Shown: positions 4,887 to 44,533, counted from the stretch's first letter. The stretch: DNA of 64,000 nucleotides from Minisyncoccota bacterium (GCA_041663185.1 JBAZQY010000001.1:19448-83447), one strand, 5' to 3'. A program made the numbers and translations. Notes: generated from the sequence alone by a model not told the origin.

Positions 4887-4969
4887 GCGTCGGTGGCAGA
4901 GTGGTCAATTGCATTTGACTGTAAATCAAACGCCTTCGGGCTACGTAGGTTCGAATCCTACCCGGCGCA
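4887..4969 (+). tRNA. tRNA-Tyr(GTA): tRNA-Tyr (anticodon GTA) with long variable arm
   Basis: Acceptor stem gcgtcgg/ccggcgc with one GU pair, anticodon loop ctGTAaa, T-arm gtagg-ttcgaat-cctac, long variable arm. CCA is not encoded. Confidence 0.85.
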
Positions 4970-6455
4970 CTCTAGAGGACTCAATGTCTGAAATTGAAGA
5001 TTTTAGCTTGAAAAGAAAGGATGTATCAATGGTTCCAAATGCGCTGTTTTTGAAAGTGAGACCCTTTGGAAATTGGAACCATTGGAGTCGTATTTTTGTC
5101 TCAATAGGAGCATCACGCCAAACCTGACTTGGATTTCTAAAATATTCTTCTAATTCCTTCATAATTGAAAGAATGTCAATATTTAAGCTTGGCATTGCTA
5201 CCAATTGAGAGTTCAATTCCAGGAGTTCCTGGTCAATTAGTTCAAGTTGCTCTTTCAAGACCTCATTCTGGATAAATCCTTCAAGATTCTTTTTTATAAC
5301 ACTGGTTTGTTTGTATTTCAGTACTTGAATTTGCCTTTTCAATTTCTCTGTATTATTTCTTGTCTCTTGGAATTTCTTAGAAAAGTTCTTTTTAATTGCC
5401 AACTTCAGTTTCTCGATCTTTGATGAATCAAGGCTGTACTTATCCAGAAATTTCACAAAATCGTTCTCAAATTTATCCCGATTATAATTTGTATCCTTTC
5501 CTCCAAACCGGTAGTAGGGATATTTTTTGTCTCTGCCCTTTGACCAACTCCCGGTCAATTTTTTACCAATTTCATTGATCACGAATCTCCTCAATGGAAA
5601 GTCAGGATGATCCGTTATGTGCGTTGAATGTTTATGACCTTTATTCTTAAGGACCCTTTGTGCCTGATCGAAAATCTCCTCTGAAATTATTGCCGGGTAA
5701 AGGCCATTGTAAATTGCTCCAAATTTGATAATACGACCGCAGTAAAGTTCATTTCGGAGTATGGTGTAGAAATATCCTTTTGAAAATGGCTTTCCACTTT
5801 TATTAGCTAATCCTTTCTTTGTCATCATCTTTCTCACTTCCTCAGTCGTATATACATTACTTGCAACCAATGTAAACGTCTTGTGCACAATTGGAGCAAT
5901 TTTTGAATCCTTTACAATTGTAGCTTTTCCATTGACTTTTGCATTTAAATATCCAATAGGTGCCATCCAAACATATCTACCATCCCGCACAGCCTCCTTC
6001 ATTCCATTAGTGCTTCGTTCAGCCCTAATATCGTTATCAAATTGGGCAATATTGGCCATTGTATTTTCCATAAACCGACCAACAGGATTGTTTTCAAAAT
6101 ACTCAGAAGTCGATTTGATTTCGACTCCATACCTCTTTAATAATAGTCGTATTTGACTGTAATCATCTGTATTTCGGGACAATCTATCTAGTTTATAGAT
6201 TATCACTGCCCTGATCCCGTTCTTTTTTTCAGCACAATATTTAAGTAGCTTTTGAAGCTCTGTACGATCTGCAGTCTTGGCACTTTCACCTTGTTCCACA
6301 AAGACTTCATTAATTTCATAATCATTTTTATTAGCATATTCCCGGCAGATTCTCTCCTGGGTAACTAAGCTATTGCCTTCATCAGCCTGTTCCTTTGTTG
6401 AAACCCGGACATAGATTACGCACCTTTTCAATGCTGTTTGATTTGTAGTATTCAT
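4941..6455 (-). CDS. Large serine recombinase (integrase)
   Basis: Resolvase catalytic domain with YVRVSTKEQ (Ser nucleophile), recombinase domain, zinc-ribbon/coiled-coil C-terminus. 504 aa. The last roughly 10 codons overlap the tRNA-Tyr 3' end. Confidence 0.85.
   Translation of the reverse strand: MNTTNQTALKRCVIYVRVSTKEQADEGNSLVTQERICREYANKNDYEINEVFVEQGESAKTADRTELQKLLKYCAEKKNGIRAVIIYKLDRLSRNTDDYSQIRLLLKRYGVEIKSTSEYFENNPVGRFMENTMANIAQFDNDIRAERSTNGMKEAVRDGRYVWMAPIGYLNAKVNGKATIVKDSKIAPIVHKTFTLVASNVYTTEEVRKMMTKKGLANKSGKPFSKGYFYTILRNELYCGRIIKFGAIYNGLYPAIISEEIFDQAQRVLKNKGHKHSTHITDHPDFPLRRFVINEIGKKLTGSWSKGRDKKYPYYRFGGKDTNYNRDKFENDFVKFLDKYSLDSSKIEKLKLAIKKNFSKKFQETRNNTEKLKRQIQVLKYKQTSVIKKNLEGFIQNEVLKEQLELIDQELLELNSQLVAMPSLNIDILSIMKELEEYFRNPSQVWRDAPIETKIRLQWFQFPKGLTFKNSAFGTIDTSFLFKLKSSISDIESSRVRRVGFEPT
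4956..4970. repeat. attL-like direct repeat (last 15 nt of tRNA-Tyr)
   Basis: tcctacccggcgcac is identical to 10986-11000. Confidence 0.65.
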
Positions 6456-6681
6456 TTGATTTCTTATTCAGATATGCCTCAATTAGAATATTAGCATAGT
6501 AATCCAAAGCGACATCTTCTGAATCATTATTTAAACTATTAATGCCGAAAGAGGGACAACGACTTAAGGGTTTGTTGCTACACAAAAGCTCTCGTTGCCC
6601 CTCTTTTGGCTCAACCATTTTCTTAAGTATTTGGCTTTCATGTAGCTTACTCATAATATAAAATTTCTTAAAAATTTTCAA
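6382..6681 (-). CDS. Small hypothetical protein upstream of the integrase (possible directionality/regulatory factor; start probably internal)
   Basis: ORF only. Same strand as the integrase and overlapping its start. Confidence 0.3.
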   Translation of the reverse strand: MKIFKKFYIMSKLHESQILKKMVEPKEGQRELLCSNKPLSRCPSFGINSLNNDSEDVALDYYANILIEAYLNKKSNEYYKSNSIEKVRNLCPGFNKGTG

Positions 6682-6833: not shown

Positions 6834-8153
6834 ATGAGTGAAGAATCATGGAAAAGACAAGAAATCACGCCAATTGGATTGACTACCTGGCGAAGTGAAT
6901 ACAAGCCTTTTGGGATTAAAGACAATGATCGGCTTGGGCATATTTATGCAATTGGTAAAACTGGCACTGGAAAAAGTACTCTGCTAGAGAATATGGCTAT
7001 TTCTGATATCATTCGAGGTAATGGTCTTTGTGTAATTGATCCTCATGGAGATCTAGCTTCCAATATCCTTAATTACATACCGGAAAGTAGGATTAAAGAT
7101 GTTATTTACTTTAATCCAGTTGATAAGGAATATCCAATTGCCTTCAATCCTCTATCTGGCATTCATCCAAATCATCATCACTTAGTTGCTTCAGGGTTGA
7201 TTTCAACTTTCAAGAAGATTTGGGCTGATTCATGGGGGCCGAGAATGGAATATATTTTGCGCTTCGCACTCTTGACTTTGCTTGAAAATAGAAAGTGTAG
7301 TTTGCTAGATATTCAACCACTGCTCACTGACCAAACATTCCGAAATTCCATTTTGTCGCGTTCAATTAGCCCGTATATACTTTCTTTCTGGCACAATGAA
7401 TTTGATAAATATCCGCCGTCACTCAAGTCGGAAGCAATCGCACCTATATTAAATAAGGTAGGGCTATTTTTAGCCAGTACACCACTGAGAAATATTGTCG
7501 GCCAAAATTCGCGTGGATTTAATCTTCAAGAAGTTATGAATAATGGTAAAATTTTAATTGTGAATCTTTCAAAAGGAGAACTTGGTGAAGATGTTACAGC
7601 CATTCTTGGGAATATGATTGTCACTAACATTCAGCTTGCCGCCTTATATCGTGCCAGACAACCTGAACATACAAGGAAACCCTTCTATTTATATGTTGAC
7701 GAAATGCATTCTTTTGTCTCATTGTCTTTTGCAGATATTTTGGCTGAAGCCAGGAAATATCGGTTGTCTATTTTTCTTTCACACCAGTATATTGAACAAC
7801 TTCATGAAAAAATTAGAGCAGCCATCTTTGGAAATGTTGGTACTCTAATATCCTTCCGTATCGGGGCAACTGATGCTGAGTATTTAGAAAAAGAGTTCAA
7901 ACCGGTTTTTGATCAATACGATCTTATCCAATTGCCAAAATATAATATGTACTTAAAGCTGATGATTGATGGAGCAACTTCCCAGCCATTTAGTGCTGAG
8001 ACTAAGCCAATTTCCTTTTTGCCTCAAAAAAATATTTCTCAAGTGATTACATTTTCACAGGAAAGATATGGTTCAGAACGAAAAAGAGTAGAGGAAACTA
8101 TTTTAGCAAAGTATAAATCAAATGAAGGACGGCAAGATCAGAAACTATTTTAG
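6834..8153 (+). CDS. Soluble P-loop NTPase, T4SS coupling protein (TraD/VirD4/TrwB)- or FtsK/HerA-like, paralog 1
   Basis: Walker A GKTGTGKST, VIDPHGDL, YPIAFNPL, Walker B YLYVDEMHSF, then ARKYRLSIFLSHQYIEQL. No TM segment. Confidence 0.7.
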   Translation: MSEESWKRQEITPIGLTTWRSEYKPFGIKDNDRLGHIYAIGKTGTGKSTLLENMAISDIIRGNGLCVIDPHGDLASNILNYIPESRIKDVIYFNPVDKEYPIAFNPLSGIHPNHHHLVASGLISTFKKIWADSWGPRMEYILRFALLTLLENRKCSLLDIQPLLTDQTFRNSILSRSISPYILSFWHNEFDKYPPSLKSEAIAPILNKVGLFLASTPLRNIVGQNSRGFNLQEVMNNGKILIVNLSKGELGEDVTAILGNMIVTNIQLAALYRARQPEHTRKPFYLYVDEMHSFVSLSFADILAEARKYRLSIFLSHQYIEQLHEKIRAAIFGNVGTLISFRIGATDAEYLEKEFKPVFDQYDLIQLPKYNMYLKLMIDGATSQPFSAETKPISFLPQKNISQVITFSQERYGSERKRVEETILAKYKSNEGRQDQKLF

Positions 8154-8264
8154 GAATTTAAAAATATAAACAAATAAATTTATATTTTTACTAAGTCAAG
8201 TTATTATAACATCTTCCGTATCAGGTATAGTACTTCAGATTATTAACCTTTAAAACAGAAAATT

Positions 8265-8804
8265 ATGATTTATGCTATTATTCTAGCCGTCATTGTGATT
8301 CTCTTTCTTCTATTCCGGCCAAGACGCAAAAAAATTGGTGAGGTCGGACAACACTGGAACCATTTCTTTCCCAATTTCCAGTTCTCATCTGCAGAATTTT
8401 ATTCTTTAGTTGAAGAAAAGATTAAAGCTCAAGCAATGCCTAATACCCGAATCTCTAGGGTAAATTACGCCGAATCAAGCATTATTTCAAATAGACGAGA
8501 ATACTTACATATAGAGAGGAAAGAAGACATTTTTGATATTTGTGCCGCTCCATTTGGAACAGGTTTTTTCGTCTCCTATTGGCTTGGAAAGCCAAAGCAT
8601 GCTTTCAGAAATTTTCTTAGTAGAATACCTTACCTTAGTCAAATATCTGAAGGTTGGCAAGGTTCCACGTATTATCTGGCTGATACAGCAAGTATGTTTA
8701 GGGGTGCAGTTGTTAGTTCAATATCAGAGGCCATTGAAGAAATAACAACAAGAAAAGGTTTGCGTGGATTGTCAGAAAGTGAGCAATTTGCGATGGTTAG
8801 ATGA
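8265..8804 (+). CDS. Single-pass membrane protein (N-terminal TM helix), unknown function
   Basis: N-terminal MIYAIILAVIVILFLLF then RPRRKK. The stop overlaps the start of the next gene (ATGA), suggesting translational coupling. Confidence 0.5.
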   Translation: MIYAIILAVIVILFLLFRPRRKKIGEVGQHWNHFFPNFQFSSAEFYSLVEEKIKAQAMPNTRISRVNYAESSIISNRREYLHIERKEDIFDICAAPFGTGFFVSYWLGKPKHAFRNFLSRIPYLSQISEGWQGSTYYLADTASMFRGAVVSSISEAIEEITTRKGLRGLSESEQFAMVR

Positions 8805-10975
8805 GTTACTTTGAATTCTTAACAAAGCAATTTTACACCTGGGAGAAGCGTGGCCGGGGATGGGAGGTATTTTCCTTTCCTGTCGATTTAGAACCTCCGT
8901 ACGAGCCTTTTTTCTCTCATTCCATCCCATATGACAATGCTACCCGTGTCCTTGATGATGGTCTTCGCCCGACTATTTTTTCACGATTAATAACAGGGGT
9001 TAGAAACCTATTCATTTCAAAACCCATTATTTCTGAAGAAATTGTGGAAGATGAACCTGTCCCGCCTTTTACTTTTGATGATGAACCTCTAACAGCCTTC
9101 ACTGTCCTATTACCAAAAGATCAACAAATCAATTTCGAGGAATCTCTTCAATTATTATTAATGCTGTCCATGTCGATGTATCCAATTAGCTTTGAGATCA
9201 TCGGCAATAGCTCGTTCATTAAAATTCAATTTGTATGTCGAAAGCCTGATACACCAAATATTCAAAATCAAATAAAAGCCTATTTTCCGGCATGTCATTT
9301 TGATTTTGGAATATTAGAAGCAATCCTACCTGAAGGGAAACAAGGATATCTTGTAGATTTCGGTTTAAGCCAAGAATTCATGAGACCTCTTTCAGTGATC
9401 AAGAATTTTACGCTTGACCCATATATTGGTCTATTTGGAATTTTAGAGAATCTTTCAGAAGACGAGCAAGCAGTTATTCAAATATTATTTAAAAGTGCTC
9501 AAAACTCCTGGTCAGAAAGTATTATTCGTTCAGTTACAGACAATCAAGGTGATCCATTTTTTCTCGATGCACCAGAGATGGTCAAACTTGCTGAAGAAAA
9601 AATTTCCGCACCTCTTTTTGGGGTAGTGATTCGAATTATAGGACTCAATGAGGATGGTAGCGACTGGTTAGCTAAAAAACTTTCAGGGAAATTAATACAG
9701 ATTACCGGTTCACCATATAATAGATTAATTCCTCTTTCGACTGAGGGATATGATGAAGCTAATTTTTGTGAAGACATTCTACTTCGCCAATCTCATCGAT
9801 TGGGAATGTTACTTAACAGCAAAGAATTAGTTTCATTAATTCATTTTCCCTCTATCTCTGTCGTTTCTAGTAAACTTGAACGAGCAATTAGGAAAACCGT
9901 TAAAGCCCCTAAGATCTTTTTAGACCATAAGCTTGTACTAGGAAGTAATTTTCATCAAGGCCAGGCAAAGGATGTGACTATTGGCCCCGAACAAAGGTTG
10001 AAACATATCCATGTTATAGGAGCAACCGGCACTGGTAAGTCTACTCTTCTCCTTAACATGATAATTCAAGACATTAGAAACGGAGAAGGATTAGCAGTGA
10101 TTGACCCTCACGGTGATTTAATTGAAAGTATCCTACCCTGGATTCCTCCAATTCGTCACAATGATGTAATCATCTTTGATCCATCTGATACTGAATATCC
10201 AATTGCCTTTAATATTCTTACAGCTCATTCAGAAATTGAGAAAGATATCTTATCATCTGATCTTGTAGCTGTCTTTAAGCGTCTTTCCACCAGTTGGGGA
10301 GATCAAATGAATTCAGTCTTTGCCAATGCTATTCTTGCCTTCCTGGAAAGTGATAAAGGAGGAACCTTAATCGATTTACGCAAATTCCTTATCGAAAAGG
10401 AGTTTCGAGCTGATTTTCTGAAAACTGTTAAAGACCCCTCAATTACATATTACTGGAACAAGGAATTTCCAATTTTAAAAAGTACTTCAATTGGGCCAAT
10501 TTTGACCAGGTTGGATGCTTTCTTGAGACCGAAAGTCATCAGAAATATGGTTGCCCAAAACAAAAGTCTGGATTTTGAAAAAATCCTGGATGACAAGAAG
10601 ATACTGCTTATTAAGCTCTCACAAGGGTTAATAGGAGAAGAAAATAGCTACCTCTTGGGAGCATTCATCGTCTCAAAACTTCAGCAAATAACGATGTCTC
10701 GCCAAGTGAAAGCCAAAACTGCTCGCGGGAATTTCTATTTATACATTGATGAGTTCCAGAATTTCATCACCCCTTCCATGTCCGCAATACTCTCTGGTGC
10801 CCGAAAGTATCACTTAGGGATGGTCTTGGCACATCAGGGTATGCAACAGCTTGATAAGAATAACTCTGAAATCGCAAGCTCTGTTATTGCAAATGCCGGC
10901 ACTCGTATCTGCTTTAGGATTGGCGACATTGATGCGAAGAAGCTTGAAGCTAACTTTACACACTTTGATGCGTAG
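8801..10975 (+). CDS. Soluble P-loop NTPase, T4CP/FtsK-HerA-like, paralog 2 with roughly 390-aa N-terminal extension
   Basis: Walker A GATGTGKST, VIDPHGDL, YPIAFNIL, Walker B YLYIDEFQNF, ARKYHLGMVLAHQGMQQL. Clear paralog of 6834-8153. Confidence 0.7.
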   Translation: MSYFEFLTKQFYTWEKRGRGWEVFSFPVDLEPPYEPFFSHSIPYDNATRVLDDGLRPTIFSRLITGVRNLFISKPIISEEIVEDEPVPPFTFDDEPLTAFTVLLPKDQQINFEESLQLLLMLSMSMYPISFEIIGNSSFIKIQFVCRKPDTPNIQNQIKAYFPACHFDFGILEAILPEGKQGYLVDFGLSQEFMRPLSVIKNFTLDPYIGLFGILENLSEDEQAVIQILFKSAQNSWSESIIRSVTDNQGDPFFLDAPEMVKLAEEKISAPLFGVVIRIIGLNEDGSDWLAKKLSGKLIQITGSPYNRLIPLSTEGYDEANFCEDILLRQSHRLGMLLNSKELVSLIHFPSISVVSSKLERAIRKTVKAPKIFLDHKLVLGSNFHQGQAKDVTIGPEQRLKHIHVIGATGTGKSTLLLNMIIQDIRNGEGLAVIDPHGDLIESILPWIPPIRHNDVIIFDPSDTEYPIAFNILTAHSEIEKDILSSDLVAVFKRLSTSWGDQMNSVFANAILAFLESDKGGTLIDLRKFLIEKEFRADFLKTVKDPSITYYWNKEFPILKSTSIGPILTRLDAFLRPKVIRNMVAQNKSLDFEKILDDKKILLIKLSQGLIGEENSYLLGAFIVSKLQQITMSRQVKAKTARGNFYLYIDEFQNFITPSMSAILSGARKYHLGMVLAHQGMQQLDKNNSEIASSVIANAGTRICFRIGDIDAKKLEANFTHFDA

Positions 10976-10985
10976 GGCGAGAAAT

Positions 10986-11000
10986 TCCTACCCGGCGCAC
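10986..11000. repeat. attR-like direct repeat
   Basis: tcctacccggcgcac, identical to the tRNA-Tyr 3' end. Confidence 0.65.
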
Positions 11001-11060
11001 AATATTAAAAAATCTAAGCTTCTGCTTGGATTTTTTAAATTATGTCTCGCCGGTAGAAGC

Positions 11061-11190
11061 AAACTGCTTTGCTTCTAGGTAGGATTCGAAGACCTTGAGC
11101 TTGTGGTTTTAAATTTTAATTTCAAGCCACACGAAAGGTGTACTGACCCCGTAAGGGTTGAAAAGCGTACTCGCGGTCCTACCCACTTGC
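11061..11190. repeat. Degenerate tRNA-3'-end/att remnant, homologous to the tRNA-Leu-linked remnant at 20087-20167
   Basis: Shares gaagaccttgag and cgaaaggtgtac with 20087-20167. Contains an inverted T-arm-like taggattcgaa and a partial third copy gtcctaccca near 11178. Confidence 0.45.
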
Positions 11191-11350
11191 TTCCTTGATT
11201 CCCCGTAAATTATGTGGTAATTTGTAAGTAAATCTACTGCTCCTAAAAATATCTGACTTTTGTTATATTTGTTTAGTTTATTTAGTTCCTTATGGGAATT
11301 TAATAAACTAAATAAATTAACATTAAACTCATAAATAAAAAATTACTTCT

Positions 11351-11944
11351 ATGAAAACAAAGAGGTTAGAAAACGTATCGTCACTGCAAGATGTGCTGCT
11401 GAATCCTTATTATAAAGGATTGATTAAAAAGGCTAAAAATCTGCAAGCCCAGGCTGATGATTTAACAAGGTCGGCATGTTTTGCAAGAGGCAAGTTGGCA
11501 TATTCTATAAGCCAAAAACTTTTAGATCTTGTCCCCAAAGGACCCGAGAGAATGCTATTAGAGCTGGAAGGAAGCTCTTTTGCTACAAGGAGATCTGATC
11601 CTGCATATTTTATAGCCTTGTATCCAAAAATGACAGGCCGGGGAATAACCCTTCTGTGCGAACTTGTAAATTCCTCCATGGACCGCTCTCGCAACCTGGA
11701 ATATAGAAAGATTTTTTGGGGAAACGGTTGTGTAATGCTCACCGAGTATGGAATTAACCATACTCTAAAAATAGCCGACCCGGAAACCTTCATGCAGAAC
11801 GCAATTTCTATCATCAATGAGGCCTGGGCCAAGAACAACCTAGGATATCTTTCCTTTGATAAGCTTGTTGACGATGAGAAAAACGGCCAAAGGTTTAGGA
11901 TATTATTTATGCCAGGGAAATGGGAAACTAAAGCCAATACCTAG
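11351..11944 (+). CDS. Hypothetical protein
   Basis: 197-aa ORF followed by a strong terminator. No recognisable motifs. Confidence 0.5.
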   Translation: MKTKRLENVSSLQDVLLNPYYKGLIKKAKNLQAQADDLTRSACFARGKLAYSISQKLLDLVPKGPERMLLELEGSSFATRRSDPAYFIALYPKMTGRGITLLCELVNSSMDRSRNLEYRKIFWGNGCVMLTEYGINHTLKIADPETFMQNAISIINEAWAKNNLGYLSFDKLVDDEKNGQRFRILFMPGKWETKANT

Positions 11945-40999: not shown

Positions 41000-43900
41000 T
41001 TATTTCTCAATAGTTATTTTAAAGACAATTTCTCCTGTTTTTATTTCTTCTCCGGTATTTCCCTTGAATTGTATTTCTTTTGCACTTACTGCTTTCATTA
41101 ATTCAGATTTAAATTTATTTATCAATTCTTGCCCTTCAGTATTTGTCTCAACAATAAGGGTAACAACATCACTAGGATTTAATCCATTATTTTTTCTGAT
41201 ATCTTGAATAGCTCGAACAAGTTCACGATACTGCCCTTCTTTCTTTAATTCCGGAGTTATATTTGTATCAAGTTCAACTTTTTGTTCGTCCCCCTTGATA
41301 AATTCAACTTCCTTAATATTTAACTCATCTTTAAGAATTTCCTGATAATCAATTGGTAATTGGTAATTGGTAATTAGTAATTTACTAAGTGGTTGCCTAA
41401 CGGGGATACCCTCTTTTTGCCTTGCTTGTAAACCAAGTGTAACAATATCACGAGCCTTTTGCATTTCTTCAATAATTTTTAATTCTTCATTGTTAATTCT
41501 TAATTCATTCTCAGGCCATTCTGCTAAATGCACACTCTCCTCATCTTTTTCATTTTTTAATTTCTGCCAAATATCCTCACTAGCAAATGGAGTAAACGGC
41601 GCCATTAATTTAATTAATGTTTTTAGAACATAGTAAAGAGTAATTTTTGCTTGTTCTTCTCCTTCTTTTATTCTGTCGCGTGAGCGACGTAGATACCAAG
41701 TTGAAAGATCATCAATAAAATCACGAATTGCTCGCACCGGTTCAAGAAGTTTGTAGTCATCTAATTTTTGTGTGCATTCATCGGTTAATTCCGTCAATCT
41801 TGCTATTATCCATTGATCTAAAATGTTATCTGATTTTTTGTATTCAATATTTTCTAACTCTATATCGCGATATAGTTCATAAAAAGCTAGCACGTTGTAA
41901 AGCAGATTAAATACCTTACTGTGAAGTTCCGCCACAGTCTTTTCATCAAAGTTTTTTGATTCCCCAGGTTGATTAACTGCATACATCCACAAGCGCAAAG
42001 TATCAACTCCATATTTGTCCATCATGGACCATGGGTCAACAATATTTCCGAGCGACTTACTCATCTTCTTCCCTTTTGCATCAAGTAAATGTCCTAAACA
42101 AATAACATTCTTGTACGCTTTACCTTTACCCATAATTGCTCCAACTGCATGAAGTGTATAGAACCATCCACGTGTCTGATCAATCGCTTCTGAAATAAAG
42201 TCGGCTGGGTACCCACCTCCTTTTTCAATTAAGTCTTTATTCTCAAAAGGATAATGATCTTGAGAGAATGGCATCGTTCCTGAATCAAGCCAAACATCCA
42301 TCACCTCCTTTACTCGAACAAGATTCCCCCCACAATCACAAGTAAGTTCTACTTCATCAATAAATGGTTTATGCAAATCAAGTTCATAATCTTCATTATG
42401 GGGGATAGCTACAAAATTATATTCTTCAAAATTTCCAAAATCTACAGGGTCCTCTTTCCAGTTTTTCCAAGCTGTCTTGACATCATCTCCATTAAGAATT
42501 GACGGTAACACTTCAAAAACTATCCCGTGAGCAACAAAAAGAATGTTTTCGCCTGAATACTTTGATTCCATCTCATAAATAAAATTAGCCACACGCTTTT
42601 TTGCTTCATAACATGATTCACCACCTTCCGGAGGAGTAAAAAAATCTTCGTGTTTCTTTCTCCATTCATTATAATCAGTTTTTGATTTACCATTATAAAT
42701 ACCGAAATTATATTCATGTAATCTTTCATCAGTAATTATTTGTTCCCTGGAAAAACCAATTACATCAGCAACAATTTTTGCTGTCTCTTGTGTTCGGATA
42801 AATGGGGATACAAATATTTTTGTAATTTTTTTATTTCGCAATTTCTCTGCCATTTCTTTTACATATTTTTTACCATTTTCAGTTAAATGATGAGGAAGAT
42901 TTGGATCACCCCCACTACAAACATTCAAAATGGTATGTTCCCCTTCTCCATGCCTCATTCCAAAATATTTATTCCCTGATCTTTTGGTTTTAGATTTTAA
43001 ATCTTCAACACTTCCAATAACTTCAACTTTATTGCATTTATCACAAGTCCAAACAGGAAGTGGGCTCCCCCAATAACGCTCACGAGAAATTGCCCAGTCT
43101 TTAATTTCTCTTAGCCATTCACCAAAACGTCCTTCTTTGATATAAGCTGGTTCCCAATTTATTCCTTCATTTTCTTTCACGAGTTTATCTCGCAACTGTG
43201 ACATCCTAATATACCAAGAGTCACGAGCATAATAGATAAGCGCCGTGTGACATCGCCAACAATGTGGGTATGAGTGCTCATATTTTTCTTTCTTAAATAA
43301 AAGTCCTCTATGAGCCAAATCTTTAATTATATCAACAGCGACTTCTTCATCGCGAACAAATCTAAAACTTAAATCTAAATCACCTTGTTTCATTTCAGAA
43401 TAAAAAGTTCCATTCAATCCCACTAAATGATGTTTAGGTAAATTTAATTTATTCCCTAAGGTGAAGTCATCCTGTCCGTACATTACAGCTGTATGCACAA
43501 CACCTGTACCATCTTCTGTGGTCACAAAATCAGCTGGGTATATTTTATAAGCATTAACCATTTTAGCTGATTCTGTTTGATTTTGTCTTATTTCATTTTC
43601 TAAAAAAGAATACAGCGGTTCATATTCAAGACCAATTAAATCTTTACCCTTAATATCATCGTACACAATTTCTATTTTTTGGTCTTCAAATACATTCTCA
43701 ACACGTGCACTAGCAAGAATATATAATTCAGAAACCCCATCAACTCGTAATGCTGTATAAGAAATATTTTCACCAACAGCTAAAGCTACATTGCCTGGTA
43801 GTGTCCACGGAGTTGTAGTCCAAGCTAGAATATATGCAGAATCTTTTGTTTCTTTATTGCCGCCATATTTTTGACCTGATTTCAATTTTAATTTCACATA

Positions 43901-44533
43901 CACCGACAAATCTTTTACATTTTCATATCCTTGGGCAAGTTCGTGCGAAGAAAGTCCTGTCCCGCAACGAGGACACCAAGGCACAACTTTATAATCTTTA
44001 TAAAGTAATTTTTGTTTGTCAGCTTCTTTGATAACATTCCAAACCGACTCAATATAATCATTATGATAAGTCACATAAGGATTTTCTTGATCAACCCAAA
44101 AACCAATTCGTTCGGTAAATTTATTCCAATATTCCAAATATTCCCAAACACTTTCTTTACATTGCTGGTTAAATTTTGCTATTCCATATTCCTCAATTGC
44201 TTTCTTTGAAGAGAGCCCGAGTTTCTTCTCAACTTGAAGTTCAACTGGTAAACCGTGCGTATCCCATCCACCTTTTCGGCGGACATGATAACCTCGCATA
44301 GTTTTGTATCGTGGAATAACATCCTTGAATGCTCTAGCTTCTAAATGATGTATCCCTGGTTTACCATTGGCAGTCGGTGGCCCTTCATAAAAAACATACT
44401 CACCCTTGGATGCATCTTTTTCTAAACTCTTTTTGAATATTTCCTGCTCTTTCCAAAACTGTAAAACTGCCTCCTCTCGTAAGGCAGATGCTGACTTTTT
44501 TGCTTCATTTTCATTTTCTGACATATTTCTCAT
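41000..44533 (-). CDS. ileS: Isoleucyl-tRNA synthetase with an in-frame insertion of a histidine-phosphatase (phosphoglycerate-mutase family) domain
   Basis: IleRS N-terminus (PPTANGKPGIHH, WDTHGLPVE), CP1 editing domain (TTPWTLPGN), KMSKSLGN. The insertion at about aa 515-718 (nt about 42380-42991) carries RHGE, SPFIRTQETA and VAHG. Confidence 0.9.
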   Translation of the reverse strand: MRNMSENENEAKKSASALREEAVLQFWKEQEIFKKSLEKDASKGEYVFYEGPPTANGKPGIHHLEARAFKDVIPRYKTMRGYHVRRKGGWDTHGLPVELQVEKKLGLSSKKAIEEYGIAKFNQQCKESVWEYLEYWNKFTERIGFWVDQENPYVTYHNDYIESVWNVIKEADKQKLLYKDYKVVPWCPRCGTGLSSHELAQGYENVKDLSVYVKLKLKSGQKYGGNKETKDSAYILAWTTTPWTLPGNVALAVGENISYTALRVDGVSELYILASARVENVFEDQKIEIVYDDIKGKDLIGLEYEPLYSFLENEIRQNQTESAKMVNAYKIYPADFVTTEDGTGVVHTAVMYGQDDFTLGNKLNLPKHHLVGLNGTFYSEMKQGDLDLSFRFVRDEEVAVDIIKDLAHRGLLFKKEKYEHSYPHCWRCHTALIYYARDSWYIRMSQLRDKLVKENEGINWEPAYIKEGRFGEWLREIKDWAISRERYWGSPLPVWTCDKCNKVEVIGSVEDLKSKTKRSGNKYFGMRHGEGEHTILNVCSGGDPNLPHHLTENGKKYVKEMAEKLRNKKITKIFVSPFIRTQETAKIVADVIGFSREQIITDERLHEYNFGIYNGKSKTDYNEWRKKHEDFFTPPEGGESCYEAKKRVANFIYEMESKYSGENILFVAHGIVFEVLPSILNGDDVKTAWKNWKEDPVDFGNFEEYNFVAIPHNEDYELDLHKPFIDEVELTCDCGGNLVRVKEVMDVWLDSGTMPFSQDHYPFENKDLIEKGGGYPADFISEAIDQTRGWFYTLHAVGAIMGKGKAYKNVICLGHLLDAKGKKMSKSLGNIVDPWSMMDKYGVDTLRLWMYAVNQPGESKNFDEKTVAELHSKVFNLLYNVLAFYELYRDIELENIEYKKSDNILDQWIIARLTELTDECTQKLDDYKLLEPVRAIRDFIDDLSTWYLRRSRDRIKEGEEQAKITLYYVLKTLIKLMAPFTPFASEDIWQKLKNEKDEESVHLAEWPENELRINNEELKIIEEMQKARDIVTLGLQARQKEGIPVRQPLSKLLITNYQLPIDYQEILKDELNIKEVEFIKGDEQKVELDTNITPELKKEGQYRELVRAIQDIRKNNGLNPSDVVTLIVETNTEGQELINKFKSELMKAVSAKEIQFKGNTGEEIKTGEIVFKITIEK

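Follow-up and report, generated by a model that had tools for sequence, protein, structure and literature searches.

A 6.0-kb tRNA-Tyr element of a Minisyncoccota bacterium carries a truncated copy of a widespread module of paired coupling-protein-type ATPases

Introduction

What function is served by two paralogous ATPases and a small membrane protein that together form the cargo of a 6.0-kb element, integrated at a tRNA-Tyr gene in a Minisyncoccota bacterium? The element lies in a stretch of 64,000 nt (GCA_041663185.1 JBAZQY010000001.1:19448-83447), hereafter the window, in which all positions are counted from the first letter. An earlier reading of this DNA, made from the sequence alone (the sequence-only reading), had proposed a membrane-tethered DNA pump that transfers without a relaxase, with an ATPase for defence or anti-defence as the alternative, and had held that either would be new for this kind of genome. 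We find that both ATPases are of the type IV coupling protein (T4CP) type, that the second of them (A2) belongs to a family of ~1000-aa proteins but has lost ~280 aa at its C terminus, and that the trio belongs to a backbone distributed over many phyla; the truncation and the breadth of this family had both been missed. We tentatively assign the trio a part in the processing and coupling of DNA during conjugative transfer.

Two soluble ATPases of the coupling-protein type

The trio is encoded by three consecutive genes, at the positions given in the sequence-only reading:

6834..8153, + strand: A1, soluble T4CP-type ATPase, 439 aa, full-length (TrwB_AAD_bind, 1.1e-9)
8265..8804, + strand: single-pass membrane protein, 179 aa, partner of A2 (membrane segment at residues 1-19)
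8801..10975, + strand: A2, DUF8128-type N-domain followed by a T4CP-type ATPase, 724 aa (Pfam and homologue alignments)

A1 and A2 are tandem paralogues, as had been proposed, with a BLASTP E value of 1e-81 and 41% identity over 346 aa, and every shared motif listed in that reading falls inside the alignment. Neither has a transmembrane (TM) anchor, the maximum 19-residue Kyte-Doolittle mean being 1.42 for A1 and 1.51 for A2. Both pass the Pfam gathering cut-offs of three coupling-protein models: TrwB_AAD_bind (38.2 and 41.3 bits; cut-off 20.5), T4SS-DNA_transf (23.5 and 25.7 bits; cut-off 20.1), and TraG-D_C (22.5 and 29.2 bits; cut-off 22). FtsK_SpoIIIE (PF01580) is matched by A2 only, at 16.5 bits against the 24 needed, and DUF87 reaches 23.9 bits in A2 (cut-off 23.2) and 19.3 bits in A1, with no NurA gene beside these HerA-like scores. 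The named T4CP families of NCBIfam are not reached (SXT_TraD, 50-57 bits against 366; conju_CD1115, 35-59 against 250); the CD1115 model, for a family of soluble 442-aa VirD4-like proteins (NF045973), is close to A1 in size. An assignment to VirB4/TraC of a complete type IV secretion system (T4SS), which had been named as the outcome that would contradict the proposal, does not fit either: VirB4_CagE scores 20-33 bits against 643, there is no CagE_TrbE_VirB Pfam match, and no T4SS occurs in the element or among ten large window open reading frames (ORFs) examined at 17.8-59.5 kb.

Structural comparison used the AlphaFold2 (AF2) model of P0002, a full-length homologue 74% identical to A2 (predicted local distance difference test [pLDDT], 85); here and below, P numbers denote A2 homologue proteins and L numbers the loci of relatives. 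The model has an all-alpha insertion (residues 479-600, with eight helices at 479-598) that separates Walker A (408-415) from Walker B (649-652); a helical insertion at this place is the hallmark of T4CPs. Foldseek searches of the PDB returned VirB4/TrwK, HerA, TrwB, Cag-beta, and DotL among the matches. TrwB gave the best superposition (TM-score 0.60-0.66, root mean square deviation 5-7 Å, ~400-445 columns); VirB4/TrwK aligned over more columns (E=8e-15) with a TM-score of 0.3, and HerA (5e-14) with one of 0.5. A sequence profile of the A2 N-domain had no usable match in the PDB. Of the original description as T4CP/FtsK-HerA-like, the T4CP part is supported and the FtsK part is not.

The proteins share with TrwB of R388, VirD4, and TraD the three Pfam models, the Walker motifs, the all-alpha insertion, and the fold, but differ from them in the absence of an N-terminal TM domain, for which a separate small membrane protein is encoded, and in the ~390-aa DUF8128 N-domain of A2, to which full-length members add a nuclease-like C-domain. 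From FtsK, SpoIIIE, and TraB they are set apart by the subthreshold domain score, the lack of TM segments, and, in the window A2, the lack of a C-terminal winged-helix domain.

A1 is of the usual size for its family (homologues, 431-454 aa), which is strongly conserved: the top full-length matches show 66-84% identity to A1, and each of the 8000 candidates scored has E<=1e-10. The existence of A2-A1 fusion proteins (P0056, P0097, and P0114, each ~1230 aa) argues that the two ATPases work together. In these fusions a second ATPase domain, which carries the A1-type QYIxQL..IRxxIxGNV motif, takes the place of the A2 C-domain.

A2 lacks the C-terminal domain of its family

The family was surveyed in one-genome-per-species collections, which yielded at least 583 confirmed loci, of which 80 were kept; A2 length and adjacency to the membrane protein were counted over 83 loci and neighboring gene families over 87. 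The 120 best A2 homologues cover 100% of the window protein at 45-74% identity, and nearly all are 976-1053 aa long. A2 measures at least 950 aa in 76 of the 83 loci (median, 1030 aa), and of the seven shorter copies, at least four run off the end of a contig and one is divided between two ORFs. The C terminus of the window A2 is equivalent to P0002 residue 725. In the nucleotide sequence, homology to the L001 and L006 genes of Bacteroidota breaks off at ...TTTGATGC, precisely where the att arm of the element starts, and the window continues instead with a tRNA-T-arm-like arm, GTAGGGCGAGAAATTCCTACCCGGCGCAC, that holds the stop codon. A split gene that recombination would restore was considered and rejected, as a tblastn search of the whole 64-kb window, in any frame, found no remainder of A2.

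Mapped onto the P0002 model, the truncation removes the beta-hairpin and helices with which the ATPase domain closes (725-792), the disordered linker that follows (795-832), and the C-terminal domain (833-1004). A full-size A2 accordingly consists of the DUF8128 N-domain, a TrwB-like nucleotide-binding domain with its all-alpha insertion, the linker, and the C-domain. The last of these has an alpha-beta-beta-beta-alpha-beta topology in the AF2 model and seven residues invariant in the family (H842, E863, D874, E887, E897, N900, and K903). It matches PD-(D/E)xK families weakly (SfsA and CoiA_nuc, at 0.003-0.13), as it does a viral "endonuclease-like" protein (5e-3); an HTH_17 domain occurs in this region in 3 of 51 relatives, and the sequence profile had no usable match in the PDB. 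We describe the C-domain as nuclease-like, and a nuclease activity is what its modeled topology and these similarities suggest.

The sequence-only reading had allowed that the ATPases might prove to be degenerate copies. That is borne out for A2 insofar as its last ~280 residues are gone; the retained 724 residues keep every position invariant in the family alignment. The A2/A1 identity ratio of 0.90, compared with 0.92-0.96 in comparable pairs, points to slight additional divergence and is not decisive. With invariant residues kept and divergence at most slightly raised, either the truncation is recent or the remainder is still constrained.

A conserved membrane partner and a widespread backbone

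The 179-aa protein has one N-terminal TM segment (hydropathy, 2.62) followed by RPRRKK, from which the positive-inside rule predicts a cytoplasmic location for its soluble alpha/beta domain. The end of its gene overlaps the beginning of A2 at 8801-8804 (ATGA, stop and start codons), and the coupling first noticed here extends to the family at large: in 80 of 83 loci the gene immediately before A2 encodes a TM protein, and in 73 of these the two genes overlap or are no more than 30 nt apart. Such conservation of the partner makes a membrane tether supplied in trans plausible. The protein has no Pfam match, and its AF2 model (pLDDT 88) no convincing fold match; its family nevertheless comprises 1383 representative clusters at E<=0.001 in a library clustered at 50% identity.

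The 80 kept loci include Bacteroidota, Acidobacteriota, Verrucomicrobiota, Planctomycetota, Desulfobacterota, Gemmatimonadota, and one genome of Kerfeldbacteria, a lineage of the candidate phyla radiation (CPR), where the TM-A2 pair (L036) has a full-length A2. Carriers that can be cultivated include Lacibacter luteus TTM-7, Brevifollis gellanilyticus NBRC 108608, and Mucilaginibacter spp. The closest copies of all three window proteins are found on Bacteroidota-type contigs. Identity to L001, which also encodes proteins with type IX secretion system (T9SS) tails, is 82% for A1, 74% for A2, and 70% for the TM protein. L006 (Bacteroidales) has the exact architecture of the window with an A2 of 1005 aa, and is adjoined by ArdC and RadC. 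We consider the window copy most likely to be a reduced derivative acquired from a Bacteroidota-like lineage.

Gene families found in the neighborhood were as follows:

large serine recombinase: 43 of 87 loci
tyrosine integrase: 13 of 87 loci
DnaG-like primase: 11 of 87 loci
ArdC-N: 11 of 87 loci
RadC: 11 of 87 loci
Replic_Relax (PF13814): 8 of 87 loci

In 27 of 83 loci A1 is found no more than 10 kb from A2; in some of these it adjoins TM-A2, and in others 2-9 kb of variable genes intervene. The recombinase starts less than 2 kb downstream of A2 in 19 loci and lies upstream of A1, in divergent orientation, in L006, L018, and the window; in L055 its 3' end overlaps a tRNA-Ser, as that of the window overlaps tRNA-Tyr.

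We note that the interval between A1 and TM-A2 behaves as a variable cargo slot (L018, 4979-9198; L063, 1504-4659; L001, 5879-9289; L009, 6318-9167), whose contents include an E2/ThiF(E1)/JAB system with HNH and WYL genes, a SIR2-STAND NTPase, and T9SS-tailed secreted proteases.

The module can thus be described as a soluble T4CP pair with a membrane partner in trans, a DUF8128 N-domain, and a nuclease-like C-domain, often accompanied by a serine recombinase. It is not categorically new, as orphan VirD4-type homologues are already abundant in Patescibacteria, and the claim of novelty for such genomes cannot be upheld: a survey counted 5,713 VirD4-type T4CP homologues in 2,918 genomes of this group, mostly away from virB4 (PMC12102498), and the TM-A2 pair itself recurs in the Kerfeldbacteria genome. 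The window proteins resemble those CPR T4CPs, which are likewise remote from virB4 and mostly without a relaxase, but the window copy is nearest to Bacteroidota sequences rather than to a CPR-specific clade. The terms "integrase" and "recombinase" are absent from the text of PMC12102498, which therefore does not describe a serine-recombinase context. Parts of the family are on record (NCBI names these proteins, Pfam lists DUF8128, and PHROGs lists 5156); our literature searches found no paper on DUF8128, no experimental description, and no paper on the A1-TM-A2 module.

A possible role in conjugative transfer

We hypothesize that the trio serves DNA processing and coupling in conjugative transfer, with the TM protein supplying the membrane anchor in trans; this is our working explanation, and we hold it tentatively. 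Under such a scheme the recombinase would excise the element, and the excised DNA would be processed and passed to the two coupling-type motors. The small membrane protein would hold A2 at the cytoplasmic face of the membrane, replacing the cis TM domain of canonical T4CPs, the A2 C-domain would recognize or nick DNA, and export would proceed through a transfer channel encoded elsewhere, which would make the element mobilizable rather than self-transmissible. A coupling role is favored over a TraB-like pump or a defense system by the anatomy of the module and by its genomic context: recombinases and a cargo slot accompany it, and relatives often encode a MOB_C relaxase, a DnaG-like primase, ArdC, and RadC. 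The window copy itself is probably transfer defective, as it encodes no relaxase and its A2 is missing the last ~280 residues.

An association with a relaxase is seen in Verrucomicrobiota and Acidobacteriota relatives. Replic_Relax is the Pfam counterpart of the MOB_C relaxase class (PMC5357655) and a member of the PD-(D/E)xK superfamily (PMC3424549). It occurs within a few genes after A1 in the four loci that have both genes on the + strand (L055, L057, L061, and L063), and immediately after it in L055 and L057. MOB_C is also the commonest relaxase class in Patescibacteria, where 39 of 109 relaxase genes of all classes lie near a t4cp gene (PMC12102498). The Verrucomicrobiota and Acidobacteriota relatives resemble MOB_C integrative mobilizable elements (IMEs) in that A1, Replic_Relax, and a primase are combined with a serine recombinase at an att site. 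Replic_Relax is absent, by contrast, from the window element and from its relatives in Bacteroidota, and TM-A2 features in no described IME module.

The gene strings in these loci deserve separate description. At 2606-9279 of L057, and also in L055, L061, and L063 (Verrucomicrobiota/Acidobacteriota type), A1 is followed by ArdC in some cases and then by Replic_Relax, a DnaG-like primase, a ~98-aa protein, and TM-A2. Some of the four add a ~800-aa protein of no known family before TM-A2, and a serine recombinase was detected after the string in L055 and L061. L079 has the ArdC, Replic_Relax, primase, and ~98-aa run together with TM-A2 and a recombinase, with no A1 within 10 kb. The string of A1, ArdC, Replic_Relax, primase, and TM-A2 looks like a complete mobilization module.

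These neighbors bear directly on the mechanism proposed in the sequence-only reading, an autonomous, relaxase-free pump for double-stranded DNA. Comparable systems are TraB of Streptomyces plasmids and actinomycete integrative and conjugative elements, and TdtA of Thermus ICEth1, with which the window trio shares a membrane-associated ATPase for DNA donation, a tRNA-integrated element, and a DNA-recognition or nuclease partner (PMC5365140); on this account, uptake would fall to the competence of the recipient. The minimal elements of the window and L006, which have no relaxase, are what such a pump would predict, TdtA sets the precedent of a membrane FtsK/HerA-type ATPase on a tRNA-integrated element with a nuclease neighbor, and the DNA-binding or nuclease-like C-terminal domain of A2, with HTH_17 in the few relatives noted above, parallels the clt-binding C terminus of TraB (PMC5365140). 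However, TraB is an FtsK-type protein with TM segments of its own and TdtA a HerA-type protein with a NurA partner, each acting as a single motor, whereas here two paralogues share a T4CP-type fold with an all-alpha domain and FtsK_SpoIIIE stays below threshold. Many relatives, unlike TraB and TdtA systems, encode MOB_C, primase, and ArdC, which are hallmarks of single-stranded DNA conjugation. Most hosts (Bacteroidota, Verrucomicrobiota, Acidobacteriota, and Planctomycetota) are diderm, so that a tether at the cytoplasmic face offers no route over two membranes, and the window A2 has no DNA-recognition end. We therefore regard transfer by a TraB-like pump as very unlikely. A bolder version, in which A1-TM-A2 is a self-sufficient and hitherto unrecognized export device whose soluble motors dock on the single-pass membrane adaptor and whose A2 C-domain replaces the relaxase, with no classical T4SS, seems to us equally improbable; were it true, such a device would mobilize serine-recombinase elements in many phyla, CPR bacteria included.

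The cargo slot and the C-domain invite another explanation, namely that TM-A2, with or without A1, is a membrane-associated ATPase-nuclease that senses and destroys incoming phage or plasmid DNA and forms the payload of recombinase islands. PADLOC reports mad8 (3e-16 and 3e-17) and HerA matches for the ATPases, the nuclease-like C-domain has conserved acidic and lysine residues, SIR2-STAND and E1/E2/JAB systems are among the neighboring cargo, and phages, in which homologues occur, also carry defense and exclusion genes. The PADLOC matches, a generic P-loop signal, were rejected as a system assignment, since the element holds no other component of MADS or of a HerA system, and a MADS preprint was uninformative on mad8. 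TM-A2 moreover sits in the backbone beside the recombinase while the defense genes sit in the variable slot, A1 is linked to MOB_C relaxase, primase, and ArdC, and our literature searches found no description of such a system. A defensive function, which the sequence-only reading had offered as its alternative, is on this balance unlikely, if less so than the pump.

Phage homologues raise a further possibility. The family is rare on viral contigs (6 loci among 2.9 million, with TM-A2 in 2 of them), but phrog_5156 gives a match at E=5e-59, and the best Foldseek matches among viral models are gp156 of phage G (3e-43) and a phage JL protein (1.7e-38), aligned over 840-990 columns. These proteins, together with that of phage Slash, have the same layout of N-domain and ATPase as A2, and phage G has an adjacent paralogue pair, although all of them sit in phage genomes. 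In the database entries, gp155 and gp156 of Bacillus phage G are adjacent homologues and the phage JL homologue is 913 aa long (BFVD G3MBM2, G3MBM1, and S5MSQ0). Since phages that do not conjugate carry structural relatives, the module may have a broader role in mobile elements.

A separate explanation is the maintenance of excised DNA or of a phage genome, through replication initiation, partition, or resolution of circular forms, in place of export. In the circular topology the module is closely linked to the recombinase, which the A2 3' end adjoins in the window, L002, and ~19 other loci; a DnaG-like primase is near, and the homologues of large Bacillus phages, including the adjacent gp155 and gp156, would fit. 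A conserved membrane partner would be unexpected for a replication or partition factor, however, and neither Rep nor Par signatures were found. T4CP-type ATPases with an all-alpha domain are also not known to act as replicative helicases, which counts against this explanation and leaves it, in our judgment, improbable. What weight remains belongs to mechanisms outside the four considered here (coupling, pump, defense, and maintenance).

Several observations weigh against the coupling role that we favor. The element and the ten large ORFs examined elsewhere in the window revealed neither a relaxase nor an oriT or mating-pore gene, and the Bacteroidota-type relatives have no recognizable relaxase within 10 kb. 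Large Bacillus phages, which are not conjugative, carry the N-domain and ATPase architecture; together with the relaxase-free Bacteroidota-type elements, they are the chief grounds for caution. The nuclease-like label of the C-domain derives from predicted topology and the weak SfsA, CoiA_nuc, and viral matches, and a fused MOB_C relaxase at this position was rejected (hhalign to Replic_Relax, probability 3%). Finally, the retained part of A2 shows no decay and keeps all invariant residues, so the truncated protein may have a residual function.

The value of the finding lies mainly in the family, which is large (at least 583 loci, 8000 scored A1 candidates, and 1383 TM-protein clusters). It offers a concrete candidate role for orphan VirD4-like genes in Patescibacteria and other phyla, and shows a conserved backbone with a cargo slot that holds defense systems. 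The window copy, a truncated derivative, is of modest value alone; it records spread between phyla (74-82% identity to Bacteroidota copies) and documents that tRNA-Tyr has served as an integration site more than once in a CPR lineage.

Boundaries of the element and the empty site

The limits of the element are defined by the following features:

4887..4970, + strand: tRNA-Tyr (GTA), the integration target (ARAGORN; Rfam tRNA model, 62 bits)
4941..6455, - strand: large serine recombinase, 504 aa (Pfam Resolvase, 4.8e-34, and Recombinase, 2.8e-12; phrog_95 integrase, 6.7e-75)
4956-4970: attL core, the last 15 nt of tRNA-Tyr, TCCTACCCGGCGCAC
6382..6681, - strand: conserved 99-aa ORF, divergent from A1 (homologues at the same position in relatives)
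10971..11000: attR, consisting of the tRNA-T-arm-like arm CGTAGGGCGAGAAAT and the 15-nt core (10986-11000)
11005..11038, + strand: hairpin terminator (terminator scan)
predicted attB junction, after excision: ...GAATCCTACCCGGCGCACAATATTAAAAAATC
predicted attP junction, after excision: ...GAGAAATTCCTACCCGGCGCACTCTAGAGGAC

The 15-bp core TCCTACCCGGCGCAC occurs at the 3' end of tRNA-Tyr and again at 10986-11000, with no third copy in the window even when two mismatches are allowed. Between the two copies lie only the recombinase, the 99-aa ORF, A1, the TM protein, and A2, in agreement with the earlier view of the trio as the sole cargo, and the A2 stop codon falls inside the attR arm CGTAGGGCGAGAAAT. 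An Rfam search of the att regions matched the tRNA alone.

CPR contigs related to the window were recovered by a metagenome scan, their clpB being ~71% identical to that of the window at the DNA level. In two of them, L088 and L090, tRNA-Tyr runs directly into sequence matching the window after position 11000. This empty site indicates that the 6.0-kb segment is a genuine lineage-specific insertion, and that the terminator at 11005-11038, which directly follows tRNA-Tyr in the same element-free contigs, is native flank outside it. The Resolvase and Recombinase domains, the duplicated 15-bp core, and the empty site in relatives are together the marks of a large-serine-recombinase element. An independent assembly of public reads (L005) has identical gene order, the 724-aa A2, and the right junction, with the tRNA 3' end at its left junction.

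The recombinase, whose last 10 codons run antisense through the tRNA-Tyr 3' end and which is 64% identical to that of L006, where the gene architecture is the same, presumably put the element into tRNA-Tyr. The element may still excise and integrate. The 99-aa ORF, which has homologues at the equivalent position in L001 (50% identity), L006 (39%), and L018 (38%) and no Pfam, PADLOC, or PHROG match, is possibly a regulator or directionality factor.

A metagenome search for the truncated A2 junction returned instead element-free relatives that contain the attR 30-mer. This 30-mer, arm plus core, also occurs downstream of tRNA-Tyr in L088, L089, and L090, where it terminates a conserved region of ~170 nt 3' of the tRNA (window, 11001-11262; L088, 4995-5166, - strand; L089, 12428-12600, - strand; L090, 249-419, - strand). 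The region is composed of the terminator hairpin, a 9-bp hairpin (GGAAGCAAA/TTTGCTTCC), a variable hairpin, and a T-arm-like end. In its first ~105 nt the window sequence shares 81-84% identity with the three relatives, as against the ~71% for clpB, and the 3' part has diverged in the window. RNAalifold gave it a tRNA-like outline, and neither Rfam nor ARAGORN matched it. An earlier element with the same type of att site may have left this region behind as a scar, or it may encode a tRNA-like RNA of the host that gave rise to the att arm.

Other genes of the window

The ten large ORFs examined at 17.8-59.5 kb are housekeeping genes, except for one that has no family match. Just beyond the element, a 197-aa ORF (11351-11944, + strand) has no match in Pfam, NCBIfam, PADLOC, or PHROG; it is missing at the equivalent place in L088, where an acyl-carrier-protein-like gene is found instead. 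Farther away, at 41000-44533 (- strand), the window encodes a class I aminoacyl-tRNA synthetase of 1177 aa with a histidine-phosphatase domain (His_Phos_1) inserted at residues 526-690, an unusual arrangement that splits the catalytic segments of the synthetase.

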